NCBI GenBank assembly: GCA_964016885.1
Contig: OZ024740.1
Span: 394,010,001-394,074,000, forward strand
Source of the DNA: Eledone cirrhosa
Lineage: Eukaryota
Direction of reading: 5' to 3'
Length of the DNA stretch: 64,000 nucleotides
Shown here: positions 16,266 through 61,862 of the stretch, piece after piece
How positions within the stretch are numbered: the stretch's first letter is position 1
How the letters are laid out: every line of letters begins with the position of its first letter
Position numbers and translations under genes: made by a program
Notes under the pieces: model-generated
Told to the model about the DNA's origin: nothing
Seen by the model: the letters and a program-made list of their open reading frames with translations, nothing else
Database searches by the model: none

Positions 16266-16769
16266 GCAGTATGCAAGGGGTCTATGGAGGCAGAGATCCT
16301 GTACAGCAATAGCACATAGCACACATTGCAGTATGCAAGGGGTCTATGGAGGCAGAGATCCTGTACAGTAATAGCACATAGCACACATTGCAGTATGCAA
16401 GGGGTCTATGGAGGCAGAGATCCTGTACAGCAATAGCACATAGCACACATTGCAGTATGCAAGGGGTCTATGGAGGCAGAGATCCTGTACAGTAATAGCA
16501 CATAGCACACATTGCAGTATGCAAGGGGTCTATGGAGGCAGAGATCCTGTACAGCAATAGCACATAGCACACATTGCAGTATGCAAGGGGTCTATGGAGG
16601 CAGAGATCCTGTACAGCAATAGCACATAGCACACATTGCAGTATGCAAGGGGTCTATGGAGGCAGAGATCCTGTACAGTAATAGCACATAGCACACATTG
16701 CAGTATGCAAGGGGTCTATGGAGGCAGAGATCCTGTACAGTAATAGCACATAGCACACATTGCAGTATG
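16266..16769. repeat. 62-bp minisatellite, 8 copies
   Basis: Unit gcagtatgcaaggggtctatggaggcagagatcctgtacagYaatagcacatagcacacatt; only one variable position. Confidence 0.95.
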
Positions 16770-20958: not shown

Positions 20959-21883
20959 TTGTTATACTTGGCGAGGGTCATATTTGTGTAATAATATTAC
21001 CAGAATTAATAACAGAACACACTCACTGTTTGGTTGGTTTTCGTTTCTGTGTCTTTTATATCGGTTAATTTAATTTATTCGGTCCTCAATGTTGCCATTG
21101 ACTGACCAACGGTCAAAAATACAGATACAATATAGACACAAACACATATATATAGTCTAACAAAGTTCTTTCGTTGCTCATCTGCAACATCGTCAGTGGT
21201 GCTATTATGTTTCCTCCCGTTGTATTGTATGCCTACGCCATCTTTATTTAGTCTGTTTATTTATTTATTTTTTTTGTCTTCTCTGCGCATGCGTTTGCGT
21301 GTGTGTATAGTCTTTTGTTTGATGTGTGTTCGTGTTTGGGTGACTGTGTATTGGTTATTGTATTATATCTTAGTTTACTAGTGTGTGTTTATATGTGTTT
21401 GTTGTTATTGTGCTTGTGTATGTATTTATTTATTTATTTATTTATACTCCTCTTAGGTCAGTGTTGTTTGTTTGGGTGTTGTTTTTATTCTATTCATATT
21501 TTCTGTTTAGCCTTGGCCTTCTAAGTTCTATTTCACTGGCCTCTCTGATTTGCCTATCTGCTGGGTCATTTCTATGTTTAGATATTATTCTAATTTCTAT
21601 GTTGTCTATGTTACCGTCGTGTTGTCTGGCATGTTCGTCTAGTACTGAACCGTTTGTTCGTCCTTTTAGTTCCCCCAGTGTTGGTCTAAATAAAAATGGC
21701 GTAGGCATACAATTGTATCTGTATTTTTGACCGTTGGTCAGTCAATGGTAACATTGAGGACAGAATAAATTAAATTAACCGATATAAAAGACACAGAAGC
21801 GAAAACCAACCAAACAGTGAGTGTGTTCTGTTATTAATTCTTGCAATATTATTACACAAATATGACCATCCCCAAGTATAACA
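20959..21883 (-). mobile_element. 5'-truncated Penelope-like element with an inverted copy of its 3' terminus
   Basis: Minus ORF 21490..21708 (SVLDEHARQH..IEIRIISK...RQIREASEIELRRPRLNRK) resembles the PLE GIY-YIG C-terminus; 20959-21130 is the reverse complement of 21713-21883; HHR-like CTGACGA-gttgc/gcaac-GAAA at 21160-21200. Confidence 0.8.
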
Positions 21884-22872: not shown

Positions 22873-25561
22873 AAATTGGAATAAATGCTCTGAAATAGCG
22901 ATATATATGTGAATATAGACATAGAATATTCGAAAATATTCTGTATGTTTATAATAAACATTTTGAAGACCTAATCGCTATAGAATAGAATACGTCACGT
23001 ATTACAATTAGATTCTCGATAAAAGCAAGGGAAGTAATCTACGCGTTTCATTCTCGTTAGAAATCATCAGGACTACATATCCAGTGCTTTTATCGAGAAT
23101 GACACAGCTAGAGACTTATAGAATACTTAGCTGTGTACAGGAACTGGTTTGAAAGAGCGGTTGCCGGTCCGGCAGAAATTAGAAATTGGAATAAATGCTC
23201 TGAAATAGCGATATATATGTGAATATAGACATAGAATATTCGAAAATATTCTGTATGTTTATAATAAACATTTTGAAGACCTAATCGCTATAGAATAGAA
23301 TACGTCACGTATTACAATTAGATTCTCGATAAAAGCAAGGGAAGTAATCTACGCGTTTCATTCTCGTTAGAAATCATCAGGACTACATATCCAGTGCTTT
23401 TATCGAGAATGACACAGCTAGAGACTTATAGAATACTTAGCTGTGTACAGGAACTGGTTTGAAAGAGCGGTTGCCGGTCCGGCAGAAATTAGAAATTGGA
23501 ATAAATGCTCTGAAATAGCGATATATATGTGAATATAGACATAGAATATTCGAAAATATTCTGTATGTTTATAATAAACATTTTGAAGACCTAATCGCTA
23601 TAGAATAGAATACGTCACGTATTACAATTAGATTCTCGATAAAAGCAAGGGAAGTAATCTACGCGTTTCATTCTCGTTAGAAATCATCAGGACTACATAT
23701 CCAGTGCTTTTATCGAGAATGACACAGCTAGAGACTTATAGAATACTTAGCTGTGTACAGGAACTGGTTTGAAAGAGCGGTTGCCGGTCCGGCAGAAATT
23801 AGAAATTGGAATAAATGCTCTGAAATAGCGATATATATGTGAATATAGACATAGAATATTCGAAAATATTCTGTATGTTTATAATAAACATTTTGAAGAC
23901 CTAATCGCTATAGAATAGAATACGTCACGTATTACAATTAGATTCTCGATAAAAGCAAGGGAAGTAATCTACGCGTTTCATTCTCGTTAGAAATCATCAG
24001 GACTACATATCCAGTGCTTTTATCGAGAATGACACAGCTAGAGACTTATAGAATACTTAGCTGTGTACAGGAACTGGTTTGAAAGAGCGGTTGCCGGTCC
24101 GGCAGAAATTAGAAATTGGAATAAATGCTCTGAAATAGCGATATATATGTGAATATAGACATAGAATATTCGAAAATATTCTGTATGTTTATAATAAACA
24201 TTTTGAAGACCTAATCGCTATAGAATAGAATACGTCACGTATTACAATTAGATTCTCGATAAAAGCAAGGGAAGTAATCTACGCGTTTCATTCTCGTTAG
24301 AAATCATCAGGACTACATATCCAGTGCTTTTATCGAGAATGACACAGCTAGAGACTTATAGAATACTTAGCTGTGTACAGGAACTGGTTTGAAAGAGCGG
24401 TTGCCGGTCCGGCAGAAATTAGAAATTGGAATAAATGCTCTGAAATAGCGATATATATGTGAATATAGACATAGAATATTCGAAAATATTCTGTATGTTT
24501 ATAATAAACATTTTGAAGACCTAATCGCTATAGAATAGAATACGTCACGTATTACAATTAGATTCTCGATAAAAGCAAGGGAAGTAATCTACGCGTTTCA
24601 TTCTCGTTAGAAATCATCAGGACTACATATCCAGTGCTTTTATCGAGAATGACACAGCTAGAGACTTATAGAGTACTTAGCTGTGTACAGGAACTGGTTT
24701 GAAAGAGCGGTTGCCGGTCCGGCAGAAATTAGAAATTGGAATAAATGCTCTGAAATAGCGATATATATGTGAATATAGACATAGAATATTCGAAAATATT
24801 CTGTATGTTTATAATAAACATTTTGAAGACCTAATCGCTATAGAATAGAATACGTCACGTATTACAATTAGATTCTCGATAAAAGCAAGGGAAGTAATCT
24901 ACGCGTTTCATTCTCGTTAGAAATCATCAGGACTACATATCCAGTGCTTTTATCGAGAATGACACAGCTAGAGACTTATAGAATACTTAGCTGTGTACAG
25001 GAACTGGTTTGAAAGAGCGGTTGCCGGTCCGGCAGAAATTAGAAATTGGAATAAATGCTCTGAAATAGCGATATATATGTGAATATAGACATAGAATATT
25101 CGAAAATATTCTGTATGTTTATAATAAACATTTTGAAGACCTAATCGCTATAGAATAGAATACGTCACGTATTACAATTAGATTCTCGATAAAAGCAAGG
25201 GAAGTAATCTACGCGTTTCATTCTCGTTAGAAATCATCAGGACTACATATCCAGTGCTTTTATCGAGAATGACACAGCTAGAGACTTATAGAATACTTAG
25301 CTGTGTACAGGAACTGGTTTGAAAGAGCGGTTGCCGGTCCGGCAGAAATTAGAAATTGGAATAAATGCTCTGAAATAGCGATATATATGTGAATATAGAC
25401 ATAGAATATTCGAAAATATTCTGTATGTTTATAATAAACATTTTGAAGACCTAATCGCTATAGAATAGAATACGTCACGTATTACAATTAGATTCTCGAT
25501 AAAAGCAAGGGAAGTAATCTACGCGTTTCATTCTCGTTAGAAATCATCAGGACTACATATC
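22873..25561 (-). mobile_element. Retrozyme-like tandem array, ~8.7 x 310 bp, one type I HHR per unit (9 HHRs on the minus strand)
   Basis: Exact 310-bp period (aaattggaata at 22873, 23183, ...); tcatcag cores at 23064+310n; only one substitution noticed (~24673). Confidence 0.9.
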
Positions 25562-26993
25562 ATTCTCGATAAAAGCACTGGATATGTAGTCCTGATGATT
25601 TCTAACGAGAATGAAACGCGTAGATTACTTCCCTTGCTTTTATCGAGAATCTAATTGTAATACGTGACGTATTCTATTCTATAGCGATTAGGTCTTCAAA
25701 ATGTTTATTATAAACATACAGAATATTTTCGAATATTCTATGTCTATATTCACATATATATCGCTATTTCAGAGCATTTATTCCAATTTCTAATTTCTGC
25801 CGGACCGGCAACCGCTCTTTCAAACCAGTTCCTGTACACAGCTAAGTATTCTATAAGTCTCTAGCTGTGTCATTCTCGATAAAAGCACTGGATATGTAGT
25901 CCTGATGATTTCTAACGAGAATGAAACGCGTAGATTACTTCCCTTGCTTTTATCGAGAATCTAATTGTAATACGTGACGTATTCTATTCTATAGCGATTA
26001 GGTCTTCAAAATGTTTATTATAAACATACAGAATATTTTCGAATATTCTATGTCTATATTCACATATATATCGCTATTTCAGAGCATTTATTCCAATTTC
26101 TAATTTCTGCCGGACCGGCAACCGCTCTTTCAAACCAGTTCCTGTACACAGCTAAGTATTCTATAAGTCTCTAGCTGTGTCATTCTCGATAAAAGCACTG
26201 GATATGTAGTCCTGATGATTTCTAACGAGAATGAAACGCGTAGATTACTTCCCTTGCTTTTATCGAGAATCTAATTGTAATACGTGACGTATTCTATTCT
26301 ATAGCGATTAGGTCTTCAAAATGTTTATTATAAACATACAGAATATTTTCGAATATTCTATGTCTATATTCACATATATATCGCTATTTCAGAGCATTTA
26401 TTCCAATTTCTAATTTCTGCCGGACCGGCAACCGCTCTTTCAAACCAGTTCCTGTACACAGCTAAGTATTCTATAAGTCTCTAGCTGTGTCATTCTCGAT
26501 AAAAGCACTGGATATGTAGTCCTGATGATTTCTAACGAGAATGAAACGCGTAGATTACTTCCCTTGCTTTTATCGAGAATCTAATTGTAATACGTGACGT
26601 ATTCTATTCTATAGCGATTAGGTCTTCAAAATGTTTATTATAAACATACAGAATATTTTCGAATATTCTATGTCTATATTCACATATATATCGCTATTTC
26701 AGAGCATTTATTCCAATTTCTAATTTCTGCCGGACCGGCAACCGCTCTTTCAAACCAGTTCCTGTACACAGCTAAGTATTCTATAAGTCTCTAGCTGTGT
26801 CATTCTCGATAAAAGCACTGGATATGTAGTCCTGATGATTTCTAACGAGAATGAAACGCGTAGATTACTTCCCTTGCTTTTATCGAGAATCTAATTGTAA
26901 TACGTGACGTATTCTATTCTATAGCGATTAGGTCTTCAAAATGTTTATTATAAACATACAGAATATTTTCGAATATTCTATGTCTATATTCAC

Positions 26994-26999
<6 letters not shown>
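25561..26999 (+). mobile_element. Inverted continuation of the 310-bp retrozyme array, ~4.6 units (5 HHRs on the plus strand)
   Basis: Exact reverse complement of the left run; gtagtc-CTGATGA-tttctaacgagaat-GAAA-cgcg-TA-gattac at 25586-25628 and every +310. Confidence 0.9.
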
Positions 27000-27024
<25 letters not shown>

Positions 27025-30859: not shown

Positions 30860-32520
30860 ATGTAAACAATGGGGAATTAGAACATAGAATTTTACATTTG
30901 CTTGAAAAATTTCAAGAGGATTTAAGTAAAATGATTAGAAATAAGAAATTAAAAAAGACTGCTGCATACTAAACTGGATTATTGAAGGAGTAAGATAAAA
31001 CAATTGATAAAACAATTGACAAGTTAAGTATTGCCTGTATAGCCGGATAAAATGAAGGACATTTATACTGTGGATTCTTACAAGAAACTGAAAAGTAATT
31101 ATAAAAAATAGACCATTACTACTAATTTAAATGATATTACCGGAGAAGGTAAGATTATTTAGTTGAACAGCTTGATTTAGATAAATATACTGAGCAAATA
31201 GACAGATAATTCCTATATTTAATTTAAAGGACCATGAGCTAAATATTAATACTCACCAGTCCATTCGGTTAATTAACTCTTCTATATCAGGTCTAGGGCG
31301 AATAAGTAAACAAGAATTAGATAAAGTAATACCATTTGCAAAGAAAAATATAGGTCTTAGTTTTGGGGGCGGCTTGACTGTTTGAAAAATAAGAAATGAA
31401 CTAAATCTTTGCAATTTGATATCAGAAGTTATTATTTTTCATAATCTCTGATTCTACTAAATAAAGCTCTAATCCAAGAAAGAAAGGTTATTATTAAACT
31501 AACCAGTCCTTGCTGTTAGACGCACGTTAATAAAGCGTGATGCATTTTATGGCAGTAGGAAATATAGACAAAAACCTCGGTATAACTATGGGGTCTAATC
31601 GCAGCTCCAGCTACGGATCGTTTTGGGTTGTATATTTTATATAAATTGAAAACTGAATATTCAAATTTGGGAGATGGTTTATATCAGGCATGTCAATAAT
31701 GCGACCCGGGGCCAGCATGCGGCGCTTTACAAGCACACCTGCGGCCCGCACAAAGGTTTTTACAGCGCGAGCAAGTTTTATCTTTGTAAAATTAGTTGTC
31801 ATGTGTGGCCCTCAGACAACACTTATGTGACCCATGTGGCCCTCGGGGAAGCCTCAGTTTGAGATGCCTGGTTTATATAAAGACGACACCCCGTTACCAT
31901 TAAGGATATTAGTCAACCCACCTGAGGGAAAATCAGTAAAAATATGTATACATTTTAAAAGAAATTTAGTTTATCTATTAAAATTGATAAAACATTAAAA
32001 CTGTAAACATATTTGATGTAGCATTAGAATTATGTATCAGGATTTTATAACATTTTATAACTTTATTGCGAATCTACATTATGTATATAGACGTGAAAAG
32101 AACTTGTTCATGGATGATGGCCAGCTTGATGCTGGATGTAAGTCAAGGGGACATACTATCAGTCATTGCCTGAAGAATTCATTCATTGGTCTTTATAAAG
32201 AGATATATTAAAGCAAAAACTTGTCCGTTAAAAACCCATTAAAAATGCATGAGTAATGAGATGCAAAGAAAAGTAATATAAAAAAACGCATGCCATATAA
32301 TCAGTAAATAGTTTGTGTTATTGATTTGGCAGATCCACAGAAAGTTTTGTACTGAAAGCGGAAGGGAAATTCATACTTTGTGACGTTTAGTACTTAGCAG
32401 TATTTTTAATGAATAAATAAGCTCTAAATAGAAAAAGAAAAAAACAGGTCGTAGACTTGTTTTGTGAAGAACCAGTCACATGAATTAATACTAAATAATA
32501 AATTAAAGCTGCCTTATTAT
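30860..32520 (+). pseudogene. Highly decayed Penelope-like RT (GLYxDD type, Naiad-like)
   Basis: Remnants IRLINSSISGLGRISKQELD, LQFDI, LLNKAL, ITMGS; GDGLYKDD is restored when the MITE at 31685-31870 and one TSD are removed. Confidence 0.55.
31685..31870. mobile_element. hAT-type MITE (186 bp)
   Basis: TIRs caggcatgtcaa / ttgagatgcctg; perfect 8-bp TSD gtttatat at 31677-31684 and 31871-31878. Confidence 0.9.
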
Positions 32521-45436: not shown

Positions 45437-48266
45437 AACAACAACCAGATATTGGGTAACCCCAAACACACAACTACATACAGACCCAATACTCAACACC
45501 AGAACCAGATACAACCACTGCCATAACACCAAGAACAATCACCGGAGACAAAATCAAAGACACATGAATACTGAACGAATCAACAGAAGAACCAGACCCC
45601 CATACAGCAACGGCCACGCAAGAGTCTATCGCCCAACCAGTTACCGACATGAAGTTCCGGCGGGCCAAAGGTTTCACCACAACAGAAACACCCCTATCCC
45701 AAATGGTCTAGGGGCCTCGCACCAAATGAAAGAAAAAAAGAAAAAAGCACCACCTTTCAAGTGGCACCTGACGAGAAAGAACTAATCGAACCAAAAATAA
45801 TCAATATATCAGCCAAGAAATTAACACAACCAGAAATACAACTGTTAGAAAATGGACTGAAGTTCACTCCCACTCCGAAAGCAGATACAGCCGATGTTAT
45901 AAAAGACATAGAAGAATACTGTCGAAAATTACGCTTAGGAGAATTCTTCCAGGGTGTACAATACGAGGAAGAATCACTGGTGAAAAACAAAAAGAACTTC
46001 ACACACCCGCTAAATAGAGATAAATACCTGGAGGAATACATAACCTGCCTTCGCCGATCAGCACGTACAAATACGGCCGAAACGAAACACAAATGCAACA
46101 TCCCTACAGACCAACTACTAGCATTGAACAAGCTACAAAGAGATTCCTCAATAATAATAAAAGAAGCGGACAAAGGTGGAGCAATCGTCATCATGGACAC
46201 AAACCACTACAAAGATATGGTCCTAGCACACTTGAATGACGAAAACTTCTACAGGAAAATCACTAAAAACGAAGAAAGGAAATCGAGGAACCAAATAGGC
46301 AAACTAACAAAGTACCAAAACAACCTAACACCAAAAGAAGTAGATTACCTAACCAACTTCGAAATGAAAACCAGCAATTTCTATGGATTACCAAAAATTC
46401 ACAAATCCAGAGAAATCCAAAACAACATAAAAGGGAAAAATACATCATACATCGAAGCACCAAAACCGACAGACTTAAAATTACGCCCCATTATTGCTGG
46501 CCCAGCCTCATGCACACAACGTCTAAGCAACCTATTAGACATCATACTCAAACCCCTATGTAAAAAAGTTCCAAGCTACAGAGATGATATGGAATTCCTT
46601 AACTATATCCCCCAAAAAGTACACCAGGATACAATCCTAGTCAGTTTTGATGTAATAAGCCTGTACACTAACATCCCACACGACCTAGGGATTGAAGCTG
46701 TGGACTTCTGGATTACAAAACACTCAAGTCACATTTCAGAAAGATTCCCCAAAGAATTCATCTTGGAAGGACTTAAATTAGTATTGGAAAACAACCACTT
46801 CCTCTTTGACAACGAACTTTATCTACAAATAAAAGGAACAGCCATGGGTACCAAAGTGGCCCCTACATATGCAACGCTCGTTATGGGTCACTTAGAGGCA
46901 AAATTATATTCCCAACTACAGATAACATTCAGTAACGACTTCGCCTTCTACATTAATAAAAACTGGAAACGTTACCTAGATGACTGCTCCATCTTCTGGA
47001 ACAGAAGCCAAACAGACCTACACACATTTTATTCGATCCTAAACAGGCTTCACGAAGCTATACAATTCACTATGGAATGTAACGAAAAGGAACTGCCCTT
47101 TCTAGATATCCTCATCATTAAAGAAGGGGAAAATATCATAACGGACCTATTTTGCAAACCTACTGACACACACCAATACTTAAATTTCCGGTCAGCACAC
47201 CCCTTACATACGAAAAGGAACATTCCCTTCAACATGGCAAAGCGCATCTGCACTATAGCAACACACCCCGTACTACAAGAAAAAAGATTATGTGACCTGA
47301 AAAAATTCCTTAAAAAACAAGAATACCCGATGAAACTCATCAACGCAGCCATCTCCAAGGCTAAGAACATCCCAATAACAACACTGAGAAAACCAAACCC
47401 ACAACATAAAAAAGAAAACCCTGCTATCTCTTTTGTCATCACTCACAACCCAGGGAACATCAACATTGTGAAAACTGCTAAGCAGTATCTCCCGATTCTA
47501 CAGCAATCTACCAAAATGAATGCACTCTTAAAAAACACACAGATAATTTATAGCAGACGCCAAGCACCCAACCTTAAAAAACTAATTACCAAGGCAAAAT
47601 TTACGACCAACATGGAATCAATGCAAGTGACGAAATGCGGGGACCCTAGATGTGGAACCTGTGAACTCATCGAAGAGGGCAAACAGTTGTCATTCAAAAA
47701 CCATGATAATTTCAAGGTCAATGCTAACATGAACTGCAAAACGAAAAACCTAATATATTGCGCAACATGTCCACAGTGTAAAGAGTATTACATTGGGGAA
47801 ACCGGAACGGGATTACATGATAGAGTCCGGGTACATAAACAACAGATTAAAGACCCCACAGTCAGAAATACCACATGTAGCGCACACTTTGCATCATGCG
47901 GGAAGGGAAAATTCACAATCTTCTCTTTCTTCAAGATATAGTCGGATAACGAACATTTCCGCAGATATAAAGAAGAATTCTTCATTGAAAAATTTAAACC
48001 ACTACTGAACACGAAAAAATGAATTAACACTCGGAGGTAAAATTCCATTTCACTACCCCCCCCCTCTTCTTATGTATACACACGAATATCTGAATGAACG
48101 GTGAGACACACACATATGTGTGTGTAGGGATGTATGGATGTATGTACGTGTGGGTATATATGTATGTGGGTGTGTGTATGTGTGTGTGTGTGTGGGTGTG
48201 TGTGTATATATATACATATATGTATGGATGTGTGTATGTTTGTATGTGTGTGTGTATATATATATG

Positions 48267-49598: not shown

Positions 49599-49623
<25 letters not shown>

Positions 49624-49629
<6 letters not shown>

Positions 49630-50478
49630 TTGGAGCTCTGAAATAGCAATATATATATGGATGTATATATAATGTATTTTGCAATACACTTTATGCTTAA
49701 TTAAAAGCATTTTGAAGACCGTATGCTATTGTTTTAGAGTAGTGACAAATTCACTTACTTTAATTTCAGCAAACAGGGGAGATAAGCCGACAAGGCCTTG
49801 TTTCGCTTTTGTTGAAGCTTATCAAGGCTAACTACCCCTCCTGTCTACTGAGGTTACTGATGTTATATTATTATAGAATTCTAGTAAATAATCAGGAACT
49901 GATTATACAGAGCGATTGTTGGTCAGGCAGAAATTAAAAATTAGAATTGGAGCTCTGAAATAGCAATATATATATGGATGTATATATAATGTATTTTGCA
50001 ATACACTTTATGCTTAATTAAAAGCATTTTGAAGATCGTATGCTATTGTTTTAGAGTAGTGACAAATTCACTTACTTTAATCTCAGCAAACAGGGGAGAT
50101 AAGCCGACAAGGCCTTGTTCGCTTTTGTTGAAGTGTATTGCAAAATACATTATATATACATCCATATATATATTGCTATTTCAGAGCTCCAATTCTAATT
50201 TTTAATTTCTGCCTGACCAGCAATCGCTCTGTATAATCAGTTCCTGATTATTTACTAGAATTCTATAAGAATATAACATCAGTAATCTCAGTAGACAGGA
50301 GGGGTAGTTAGCCTTGATAAGCTTCAACAAAAGCGAAACAAGGCCTTGTCGGCTTATCTCCCCTGTTTGCTGAGATTAAAGTAAGTGAATTTGTCACTAC
50401 TCTAAAACAATAGCATACGGTCTTCAAAATGCTTTTAATTAAGCATAAAGTGTATTGCAAAATACATTATATATACAT

Positions 50479-50488
<10 letters not shown>
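49624..50488. mobile_element. 317-bp retrozyme-like repeat (1.6 units + ~1.1 inverted unit) with U3-A8 variant HHR
   Basis: ttagaattgg at 49624 and 49941; inversion at 50131-50133; HHR agcc-TTGATAA-gctt/aagc-GAAA-caaggccttg-TC-ggct at 50310-50354 (plus) and ~49785-49829 (minus). Confidence 0.85.
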
Positions 50489-50546
<58 letters not shown>

Positions 50547-50742: not shown

Positions 50743-53142
50743 GAGGAACTCAGGGATGTAAAATCACGTGTTAGGCGGAGTCTTCCTCAGATGAAGGATC
50801 AGTGGTGGAGTGAGAAGGCTGGTGAGATACAAACTGCGTCTGATTCCAATAACACAAAGCTGTTGTACAGTCTCTTGCGTGAGGTTTATGGACCGTCTTC
50901 TTCTCTGGTGACACCGTTTCGCAGCAAGGATGGCAAAGAACTTCTTCGTGACTCACAAGGAATTCTACGAAGGTGGCGAGAGCACTTTGATGATCTTTTG
51001 AATCAGCCGTCTGTCGTCAGTGAAGATTTCCTCAATCTCATTCCAGAAAGTCCTGTGAAAGTAGCTCTCGCAGAACCTCCGACGTTTGTGGAGGTTGCAG
51101 TGGCTATTTCGAAGCTGAACAGTGGAAGATCTCTAGGTATGGATGGCATACATGCTGAGCTCCTACAATATGGTGGTGAGAGACTCCTGCAACATCTTCA
51201 TTCTTTGTTTGGCAGGATATGGGCTAATGAATCCGTACCTGAGGACTGGAGAGATGCAGTAATGGTGGTCTTGTACAAGGGAAAGGGTAACAGGAACGAT
51301 TGTGGGAACTACAGAGGTATATCATTGCTTTCTGTCGTAGGGAAAGTTTTATGCAGGGTGCTTCTGGACCGTCTTCTGACACACATTGCAGATTGTGTTC
51401 TTCCTGAAAGTCAATCTGGTTTTCGTGCTGGACGCGGCACTACTGATATGATCTTCTCAGCTAGACAGCTCCAGGAGAAGTGCATGGAACAAGGCTTGGA
51501 TCTGTATCAGGTTTTTGTCGATCTGACAAAAGCTTTCGATACTGTTAACAGAGATGCATTATGGAAGGTTCTCCAGAAACTTGGTTGCCCTGATAAGTTC
51601 CTTGCTTTAGTTAGGTCTTTCCATGACGACATGAAGGCTTGGGTTAATGTCAGGGGTAACATGTCGGAGCCTATCTCAGTAAAAATGGAGTGAAACAGGG
51701 GGATATTCCAGCACCGACCCTGTTTGCCATATACTTTGCAATGGTTTTCTGTATTGCTTTCAGGAATTGCGAGCATGGTGTTTACATCCGATATCGAACC
51801 TCAGGCAGCATATTTAACATCAGGCGCTTTGCTGCGAGGACAAAAGTATTTACATCAATCATAAGAGACCTCTTGTATGCAGATGATTGCGATCTTGTAA
51901 CGCACACAGAGAGGATATGCAGCACATTTTGAATACATTTTCTGACGCTTGCACTGCCCTAGGTCTGACTGTCAGTCTCAAGAAAACCGTCGTCATGTAC
52001 CAACCTGCCCCTGGTAAGCAGTACACTGAACCAAACATCTATGTGTATGGCAGACGACTTGGAGTGGTTGATCAGTTTGTCTACCTGGGAAGCACTGTCA
52101 ATCGATACAGCAACCTTGACAGTGAAATCTCACTTAGGATTAGGAAAGCAAGTGATGCTTTCGGAAAGCTAGAAAGGCGACTCTGGGGTCGGCGAGACAT
52201 ATGCAGGAGGACAAAGGTAAAGGTGTACAGGGCATGTGTGCTCTCTTGTCTTCTGTATGCCTGCGAGACCTGGGTCACATATCGACACCAACTTAAGCAA
52301 TTGGAGCGTTTCCATCAGATGTGTCTCAGACGGATCCATGGCGTTCACTGGAGGGACCACATCAGTGATGTCGAGATTTTGGAAAGCTCTATGTGTGACA
52401 GTATAGAAGCTCTTGTGCTTAAGCAACGACTGCGTTGGAGTGGTCACCTTGCCAGGATGAAGGATTCTAGAATACCAAAACAACTCTTTTATGGAGAGTT
52501 GGTTAAAGGAAAACGACCGCCACATAAACCAAAAAAGAGGTATAAGGATTCCTTGAAAGCCTCTCTGAAAGACGCTAACATCTCTGCTGATACATGGGAG
52601 AATATTGCTGCTGATCGTAATAAATGGAGAAAGACTGTATATGAGGGAAAAGTTTCCTTTGAGGCATCTCGAATCGCATACGAGAAAGTAAAGCGGGATG
52701 TGAGGAAGGGCATTGCTGTTGCACTTCCAGACGGCGAGGGTCCTCCTATGGTGCTGACATGCAGCGTATGTGCGAGACTCTGCCTAAGCAAAGCTGGACT
52801 CGAAAGTCATCTTCGCAGTCATAAAGCAAGACCAGTGGTTGACTACCAGGCTGCTGTTGGAGATGCTACTCATCATGCTTGCCAAACATGTGGTAGAGAA
52901 TGTAAATCAGCAGGAGGGCTCAAGCGACATGCAAAAGTACACGAACTCCAACCACAGCCGACTATTCCCAGTGAATGTTTTGGTTGCCGACTCTGTGCAA
53001 GACATTTTAGATCATTGGCTGGGCTAAAAAGCCACATTCGATCGCAGCGCTGTTAGTTGCTATCGTGTGTGTGTATGTGTGTAGATATGCTTATGTGTGT
53101 GCGTGTATATATATATGTATATGTATATATATGTATATGTAT
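50743..53142 (+). mobile_element. RTE LINE, 5'-truncated, with full RT domain and three C2H2 fingers, frameshifted
   Basis: ORFs 50599..51693, 51690..51932 and 51887..53056 contain NYRGISLLS, QSGFRAGRGT, FVDLTKAFD, KQGDIPAP, LLYADD and FVYLGS; two frameshifts. Confidence 0.95.
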
Positions 53143-55491: not shown

Positions 55492-55541
55492 CAGAAAAAC
55501 CACAGATGTGAGAAAAACCACAGACCCTCCATCTCAACTCA

Positions 55542-55579
55542 CCTTTTGAAAAGCAGAAGAACTGCGAAACCGGTAAAGG
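55542..55579 (+). ncRNA. Compact type I hammerhead ribozyme, U3-A8 variant
   Basis: cctt-TTGAAAA-gcag-aagaa-ctgc-GAAA-ccgg-TA-aagg; stems I and II perfect, palindromic ACCGGT stem III. Confidence 0.7.
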
Positions 55580-55736
55580 AACCAAATAAATATATATATT
55601 TAAAAAGAAAATAAGACTCCAGTTGCATTTTCGATTTCATCTTTTTTTCTTTATACTTTCACTCGTGTAGGACACCTCGGTTATTTTTCAAGTTATAAAA
55701 AAACCTCACTTTCTAATACATATATATGTATATATA

Positions 55737-61632: not shown

Positions 61633-61651
61633 ATTATTAGTGTTGTTTGTT

Positions 61652-61862
61652 GCGGTTCTGTAGTGTTGGTGGTAGAATTGGTGTTGGTGTTGGCGGTTCT
61701 GTAGTGTTGGTGGTAGAATTGGTGTTGGTGTTGGCGGTTCTGTAGTGTTGGTGGTAGAATTGGTGTTGGTGTTGGCGGTTCTGTAGTGTTGGTGGTAGAA
61801 TTGGTGTTGGTGTTGGCGGTTCTGTAGTGTTGGTGGTAGAATTGGTGTTGGTGTTGGCGGTT
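61652..61862. repeat. 41-bp minisatellite, ~5 copies
   Basis: Unit gcggttctgtagtgttggtggtagaattggtgttggtgttg. Confidence 0.95.

Follow-up and report, generated by a model that had tools for sequence, protein, structure and literature searches.

A dispersed 317-bp family of probable hammerhead retrozymes in Eledone cirrhosa with insertion ends of the Penelope type

The element at ~49623-50490 of a 64,000-nucleotide stretch of Eledone cirrhosa DNA (the whole stretch analysed, hereafter the window) is probably a copy of a non-coding 317-bp retrozyme that carries a U3-A8 hammerhead ribozyme and, being non-autonomous, is mobilised by a Neptune-type Penelope-like element (PLE). The mobility of animal retrozymes is disputed. 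Co-occurrence and pLTR homology have led to the proposal of a PLE partner, and the growth of tandem arrays has been explained by circles that are reverse-transcribed in a rolling fashion or, alternatively, by local recombination. Hammerheads with a U3-A8 pair and the link between retrozymes and Penelope elements, which was argued in a recent preprint (10.64898/2026.07.22.740005), are already in print; the core swap described here is genuine but known, and adds little alone. The more useful content is the integration footprint of PLEs on what appear to be single-template concatemers of the 317-bp family, beside young intact PLEs with the same footprint. Because this footprint and candidate mobilisers occur in the same genome, the question becomes testable in vitro with defined RNA and protein.

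The 317-bp unit was recovered as a direct repeat at a spacing of 317, as reported in an earlier note on this DNA. The element comprises 1.6 units and an inverted arm and is flanked on both sides by (TA)n runs, which were identified as the target microsatellites by TRF and sequence (left, 49599..49624; right, 50481..50546). The left arm (49623..50130) contains the 1.6 head-to-tail units with RNA sense on the minus strand and the RNA 3′ end at the left (TA)n. The right arm (50131..50490) is inverted, with RNA sense on the plus strand, and ends at the internal TA tract of the unit. A 34-nt ‘tail’, consisting of the internal AUAUAUAUAU tract and a further 24 nt (49625..49658, minus strand), was present at the left end only. 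The arms were joined at 50130/50131 with a 3-nt microhomology and were 99% complementary across 360 nt. A read-through transcript of 49649-50490 would give a 360-bp hairpin, and inverted insertions of this kind could be sources of dsRNA.

One complete type I hammerhead was found on each strand. The left-arm copy spans 49785..49829 (minus strand), with U3 at 49825 and the predicted cut after C17 at 49789. The right-arm copy spans 50310..50354 (plus strand), with stem I at 50310-13/50351-54, U3 at 50314, A8 at 50319, stem II at 50321-34, GAA at 50335-37, the palindromic stem III at 50338-49, and C17 at 50350. A second left-arm hammerhead is interrupted by the inversion within loop II, and its 3′ half only was detected (50099..50130, minus strand) as a partial match of 30.7 bits with the GAAA box one base short. 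Two consecutive complete ribozymes, the mark of an ‘active’ element in the 2026 preprint, were not found in the window copy. With one complete ribozyme per strand and half a ribozyme at the inversion, this copy is probably a product, not a source. Consecutive complete ribozymes do occur in other family copies (L018 and L071), so that the family qualifies, and runs of up to 3 ribozyme units were seen in 317-bp copies and up to 6 in 316-bp copies.

The sister 310-bp array of the same window (22873..27001; 8.7 + 4.7 units) has a C3-G8 core, a palindromic 6-nt stem III and the same inverted architecture as the 317-bp element. The two units aligned colinearly, with 187 of 322 columns identical. All of the blocks that the earlier note had listed as shared fell in order in this alignment, and the ribozyme occupied the same place in both units. 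Two further tandem arrays were also detected in the window by TRF, at 16266-16769 (62 bp × 8.1) and 61636-61862 (41 bp × 5.5).

The fold of the ribozyme was examined with a descriptor permitting any Watson–Crick 3-8 pair. The window ribozyme has the core UUGAUAA, stem II GCUU/AAGC, stem III ACAAGGCCUUGU, GAAA and GUC. It thereby carries the pattern YUGANRA...GAAA...UH with a Watson–Crick 3-8 pair, and its three helices, open at stem I, have covariation support. C17 was placed by structure at 50350 and 49789, the former being the position after which the earlier note had put the cut, here as there a predicted one. Pair 10.1-11.1 is G-C in the window copy; it was paired in 13 of 23 sister rows and is often unpaired. 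Loop II is A/C-rich, and an internal loop of stem I lies at a constant place. The ribozyme is surrounded by a long stem I extension (50283..50379, plus strand), and the region including this extension was more stable than its shuffled versions (z = -6.45; 0/200 as stable). The extension contains 6 G-U pairs, and the folding energy was -36.9 kcal/mol for the sense strand versus -32.2 kcal/mol for the antisense strand, which bears out the earlier statement that the unit has its own stem I extension using G-U pairs in the sense orientation. No match to Rfam at the gathering score was obtained anywhere in the window, the canonical 310-bp ribozymes included; the HH9 model matched weakly at both ribozymes (23.9 bits against a cut-off of 52, E 0.0023). 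Because the canonical-core 310-bp sister also fails, the Rfam miss is attributed to the scope of the models.

Stem III is a perfect 12-nt palindrome in the window unit and fully self-complementary in 26 of the 36 family members aligned. The best predicted fold of a monomer pairs the core with stem III; the active fold was 4.9 kcal/mol worse, and the probability of stem III was ~0. For two copies, the minimum-energy fold joined the molecules by an intermolecular stem III of 12 bp and left each core in its active form (-84.1 versus 2 × -36.7, or -73.4 kcal/mol), all of these energies being free of tertiary contacts. The palindromic stem III thus predicts that cleavage would proceed as a dimer. 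It is established that metazoan type I hammerheads can cleave as dimers through a palindromic helix III (PMC4209133; PMC6765202). In vitro, 8 of 9 Xenopus retrozyme dimers are reported to show no cleavage and one to be cleaved (10.64898/2026.07.22.740005).

The 317-bp unit had 1,672 candidate places in the 3.0-Gb genome; 39 of these were scored and gave 118 matches, and the full-length matches were mostly 97-99% identical. Four sequencing runs, all of them contigs, gave variants at the DNA level only. A 21-nt 3′ motif common to both units gave 23,514 matches, while its reversed control gave 0. The 317-bp repeat forms a young subfamily with dispersed copies, and the wider family also takes in the 310-bp array and related subfamilies with units of 310-319 bp whose ribozymes differ. 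The size of the family had escaped the earlier note, as had the palindromic stem III and the Penelope-type ends. A hammerhead at 55538-55590 was considered as a third family member in the window and rejected, since it belongs to a different, PLE-end-like family. The corresponding short element (55538-55717, plus strand; also at L063 and L072) has a U3-A8 hammerhead with a 6-nt palindromic stem III and ends at (TA)n. Elsewhere it occurs as inverted pairs, and its 3′ end, compared by eye, looks like the terminal repeat of a Neptune-type family (L274) and not like the 317-bp unit.

Covariation was analyzed in a set of 284 matches reduced to 37 rows, from which L155 was removed as a non-member before counting, leaving 36 non-redundant rows. 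The RNAalifold consensus contained all three stems as well as the long extension of stem I, and 18 of its 21 pairs had changes on both sides. In the named structure, 93.3% of cells were paired versus 67.8% after shuffling. The covariation score was 0.695 versus 0.244 in shuffled alignments (0/500) and at most 0.107 in slid controls, the shuffle test being inflated by related rows; the search patterns had predetermined some of stem III as well as the 3-8 state of many rows, with no selection for stems I and II. A tree was then built from the flanks only, with 23 rows (21 main-group members and 2 octamer-bearing members with flank homology). It contained 3 changes of the 3-8 pair, 2 of them forced by well-supported branches, and placed the U3-A8 clade of the window as sister to C3-G8 members. 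Both sides changed on the same branches for 3-8 (3/3/3), I.1 (4/4/4) and II.3 (5/5/5). For the 3-8 switch alone there were only 2 independent pairs, and both agreed (p = 0.5). A 36-row tree with 4 switches was set aside because 13 of 15 octamer-bearing members have no flank homology to the main group. These data indicate that the 3-8 pair has switched at least twice.

The state of the 3-8 pair was also counted directly. Among 101 distinct copies from 43 sites, chosen by unit or motif similarity with the 3-8 state disregarded, U-A was found in 58, C-G in 43 and a mixed state in 0. Genome-wide patterns, which omit the 310 type, take in other families and count copies rather than events, gave 6,392 U-A, 7,086 C-G and 902 mixed out of 14,380 (controls 178, 53 and 234; total 465). 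The sister relation of the two units, the kept hammerhead structure and the compensated 3-8 pair, all put forward in the earlier note together with the expectation of covariation in further members, are supported by this family-wide covariation and by the genome counts. Its warning that searches for CUGANGA only would miss this member also held, as about half of the hammerheads counted here would be missed, and U3-A8 is a tolerated swap that occurs naturally in Penelope-like hammerheads of S. mansoni (PMC4209133). On comparative grounds, the compensatory changes repeated in stems and core imply selection on the catalytic fold.

Insertion ends were compared at 26 distinct sites (30 loci with 4 duplicates removed), which represent the best full-length matches and are therefore biased to young intact copies. 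The RNA 3′ (tail) end was fixed and adjoined a TA-rich run at all 26 sites, 24 by script and 2 by reading. The combination of a tail and a short inverted end was found at 13 of the 26 sites by script, or 14 with L021, which was assigned by reading. One site had tails at both ends, and the remaining sites were 5′-truncated or had cut inverted arms. The inverted arm stops 34 nt earlier than the tail end, at the internal TA tract of the unit. Since neither fixed end coincides with the predicted cut site, the distances downstream of it being 130 and 164 nt, reverse transcription would start inside the RNA and pass through the cut site. The tail measured 34 nt in the 317-bp unit, 35 nt in the 310-bp unit and 36 nt in a 777-aa PLE of the same genome (see below), and no target-site duplication was discernible at the insertions. 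The hallmarks described for PLEs are partial tandem copies, inversion of the 5′ copy, a one-sided tail of 30-40 bp and a preference for (TA)n (PMC8557442); in vitro the tail corresponds to the interval between two internal start sites of a PLE reverse transcriptase (PMC11167929).

Full units within 7 young arrays differed by a mean of 0-0.4 changes, and likewise across arms in the 4 arrays in which both arms were compared. Between different 310/311-bp arrays there were 0-4 differences, and in two older copies neighboring units differed by 3 and 6. The identity within arrays fits one template molecule that was copied at insertion, followed by ordinary decay. The template was likely circular, and rolling reverse transcription of a circle has been proposed (PMC4209133). 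Identical units could also derive from linear read-through RNA of an array that was already homogeneous.

A 777-aa PLE of this genome with reverse transcriptase and GIY-YIG regions (L312:3698-6028, plus strand; L311-L320) was young and intact, with many near-identical copies and 9,581 candidates for the query used. A tail plus short end was present in 9 of 10 of its loci, and its terminal repeat carries a U3-A8 hammerhead with a palindromic stem III. By its GLKF, DKG and CxxxxCxxC motifs, and not by a tree, this family would be classed as Neptune/Nematis-type. A second element, an 821-aa PLE of the Hydra type (RWK and DKT motifs; L112:2488-4950, minus strand; L111-L120), was likewise young and intact and very abundant, with 61,019 candidates and a C3-G8 hammerhead in its terminal repeat. 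Among the matches listed, 22 of 22 TA-abutting ends of this family stopped at one site, some of the loci overlapping, and Pfam found no domain in the 821-aa protein. The comparison covered five of the PLE families of the genome (the 821-aa family and four of Neptune type) and one related end; no sequence shared with the 317-bp unit was detectable in these, and no pLTR among those examined was homologous to the unit. It is the geometry of the ends that points to a Neptune-type mobiliser.

At 2 of the 26 sites (L019/L271 and L006/L274), the retrozyme 5′ end was fused directly to part of a Neptune-type element, with no TA run between them; the 3′ end of that part lies in a (TA)n on its opposite side. 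Co-insertion was considered, but these junctions were rejected as evidence of co-mobilisation: one of the two partners is an old, frameshifted copy, and at a third site a fragment that by eye reads as a CR1-type LINE is joined to the unit in the same manner, so that deletion at the target site accounts for them just as well. Further PLE fragments with endonuclease or reverse transcriptase similarity were located in the window by tblastn at 21493-21672 (minus strand), 31212-31471 and 47558-48016, and a decayed LINE-type reverse transcriptase region was recognized by eye at ~50745-51800 (plus strand), after an (ATGT)n run, with similar sequence in L066.

In both units a common block, 77 nt upstream of U3, contains AATT, either TCAGT or CCAGT, and a run resembling TATA, with spacing similar to that of the snRNA promoters of this genome (50204..50269, plus strand; AATT at 50204, TCAGT at 50237, TATA-like run at 50264). 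In the U1, U2 and U5 genes of this genome, AATTA was found together with YCAGT at -55 to -58 (13/13 non-redundant promoters) and a TATA-like run near -30; loci with such Pol II snRNA promoters include the L171-L173, L211-L216 and L241-L247 group. A TATA-like run is unusual for Pol II snRNA genes. Two U6 genes had an octamer at -76/-77, the U6 promoters consisting of an octamer-like 12-mer at -76 and a TATA. The block of the retrozyme units weakly resembles an snRNA promoter, which would place the start at ~50292-50295. A full-length 70-column promoter matrix was tried and rejected, as its best site was elsewhere in both units, 77/500 shuffles of the 317-bp unit scored as high, and 8/13 held-out promoters were recovered. 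A three-block model, designed post hoc, recovered 13/13 held-out promoters and gave 267 window sites scoring ≥9. It picked the block in both units (82/1000 and 8/1000 shuffles as high), with scores below those of true promoters, and in 19 of 36 members. When promoters were aligned pairwise, the 317-bp unit was in register with 3/16 (the best at 3/300 shuffles) and the 310-bp unit with 0/16, while a member of the octamer group was in register with 9/16, two of them at 0/300 shuffles. Taken together, an internal promoter of the snRNA type is possible, if somewhat doubtful.

An octamer within 135 nt upstream was found in 16 of 50 ribozyme-selected loci, against 0.003 expected per stretch; most of these loci have no demonstrated kinship, and flank homology to the main group was seen in 2/15 octamer-bearing members. 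In dispersed older hammerhead families (L126, L132, L134, L136, L137, L139 and the L144-L169 group), the octamer precedes the core by 85-113 nt in most cases, and the 3′ ends, which are T-rich, lie at (TA)n. They include both C3-G8 and U3-A8 groups, and one of them matches the U2/U1/U5 promoters well. A Pol III terminator at the tail end was set aside, since several internal U4-U5 runs occur in both units.

The reading that we prefer would proceed as follows. Tandem copies would be transcribed by read-through, and the promoter may be an internal, snRNA-like one that lies ~20 nt 5′ of the core; the RNA would be cleaved at GUC, aided by pairing of the palindromic stem III between two copies, and ligated to a 317-nt circle. 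A Neptune-type PLE would supply reverse transcriptase and endonuclease, and target-primed reverse transcription from both target strands would begin at the two internal start sites (130 and 164 nt past the cut) and roll on round the circle, giving tail-out inverted concatemers in (TA)n. An element mobilised by the same PLE could instead have used an uncleaved, linear multimeric transcript with no circle, the ribozyme being slow, protein-dependent or in another role. Misfolding is predicted for the monomer, identical units would also be expected from a source array that was homogeneous, and the PLE of the anole inserts without ribozyme cleavage by using unprocessed RNA, its ribozyme cutting only with protein (PMC11167929). 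However, the repeated compensatory changes imply selection on the catalytic fold, array length could not grow from a linear template, and arrays of at least 13 units with array-specific variants on both arms are simpler to derive from one circle. Circles have also been shown for retrozymes of coral, mussel and axolotl (PMC7229834), and a linear template appears unlikely.

Unequal crossing-over and local amplification are the model favored for tandem growth in the preprint (10.64898/2026.07.22.740005), and the array could accordingly be a minisatellite that arose from an inserted PLE terminal repeat with the ribozyme as a passive passenger. The units are indeed tandem and homogeneous within arrays, and homology between retrozymes and pLTRs has been reported in Xenopus (10.64898/2026.07.22.740005). 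This origin is nonetheless improbable here: every examined site has a fixed 3′ end of its own, of the reverse-transcription type, with a 5′ end that varies; the flanks carry no PLE body in sense orientation; the pLTRs examined lack homology to the unit; and the differences between neighboring units in the two older copies argue against homogenization. A DNA-level rolling-circle element, non-autonomous, resident in TA runs and with a hammerhead present by chance or capture, was also considered. Helitron/Helentron-like elements have tandem copies, an AT-rich target and a hairpin near one end, features that the retrozyme shares. The strand-specific RNA structure with G-U pairs and the covariation of the core argue against such an element, and the 5′ truncation, inversion and one-sided tail match PLEs of the same genome, which makes it very improbable.

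The PLE-mobilised retrozyme with a circular template can be extended to a self-contained RNA-circle parasite of Neptune-type PLEs, with a captured promoter of the snRNA type, a dimer-gated hammerhead, recognition through structure instead of a common terminal sequence, and one-step rolling-circle insertion from both target strands. We regard this full version as tentative and rather doubtful. If true, it would show directly, at the genomic level, that animal retrozyme arrays originate on insertion and do not grow by unequal crossing-over, and the switches between C3-G8 and U3-A8 would provide a natural series for examining the core.

Judged at the level of the family and from its sequences, the testable features of a metazoan non-LTR retrozyme are present. 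Like those described (PMC7229834; 10.64898/2026.07.22.740005), the units are tandem, non-coding, 150-450 bp long and below 50% GC, with one type I hammerhead per unit; they lack LTR, PBS and PPT and co-occur with PLEs (PMC7229834). Amphibian retrozymes have a palindromic helix III and dimer-type cleavage, which the present unit shares by prediction. In contrast to the metazoan retrozymes described, about half of the motifs counted here are U3-A8, stem III is palindromic over 12 nt where theirs has 1-2 bp, the copies form tail-out inverted concatemers in (TA)n, and no homologous pLTR was found; circles and cleavage are inferred. The terms ‘tail’, ‘promoter’ and ‘palindrom’ are absent from the text of the 2026 preprint, whose supplements could list related families. 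No description of the 317-bp family or of tail-type ends in retrozymes was found in the literature covered, with most subscription journals and repeat databases outside that scope.

The element resembles Neptune/Nematis-type PLEs and their derivatives (PMC8557442; PMC11167929) in its partial tandems, inverted 5′-truncated copy, 30-40-nt tail at one end and (TA)n target, and in a hammerhead 110-165 nt upstream of the 3′ end. It differs from them in that the 317-bp unit has no ORF and no detectable 3′-end homology to the autonomous families examined. Non-autonomous Chlamys elements generally have 3′ ends in common with their partners, and multi-copy head-to-tail non-autonomous PLEs are known in Chlamydomonas (PMC8557442). 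Newt satellite 2, as cited from PMC2220036, has a tandem unit of ~300-350 bp with a type I hammerhead and an snRNA-type promoter; here the putative promoter is a weak resemblance to the U1/U2/U5 promoters of the genome itself, and the host lineage and core differ. The PLE hammerheads of S. mansoni share the U3-A8 swap, with ~1,300 matches that include opposite-strand pairs 100-700 bp apart, and are described as minimal, with little or no helix III, and mostly single (PMC4209133). In E. cirrhosa, by comparison, the swap is found in complete tandem units, and a single family has changed state in both directions.
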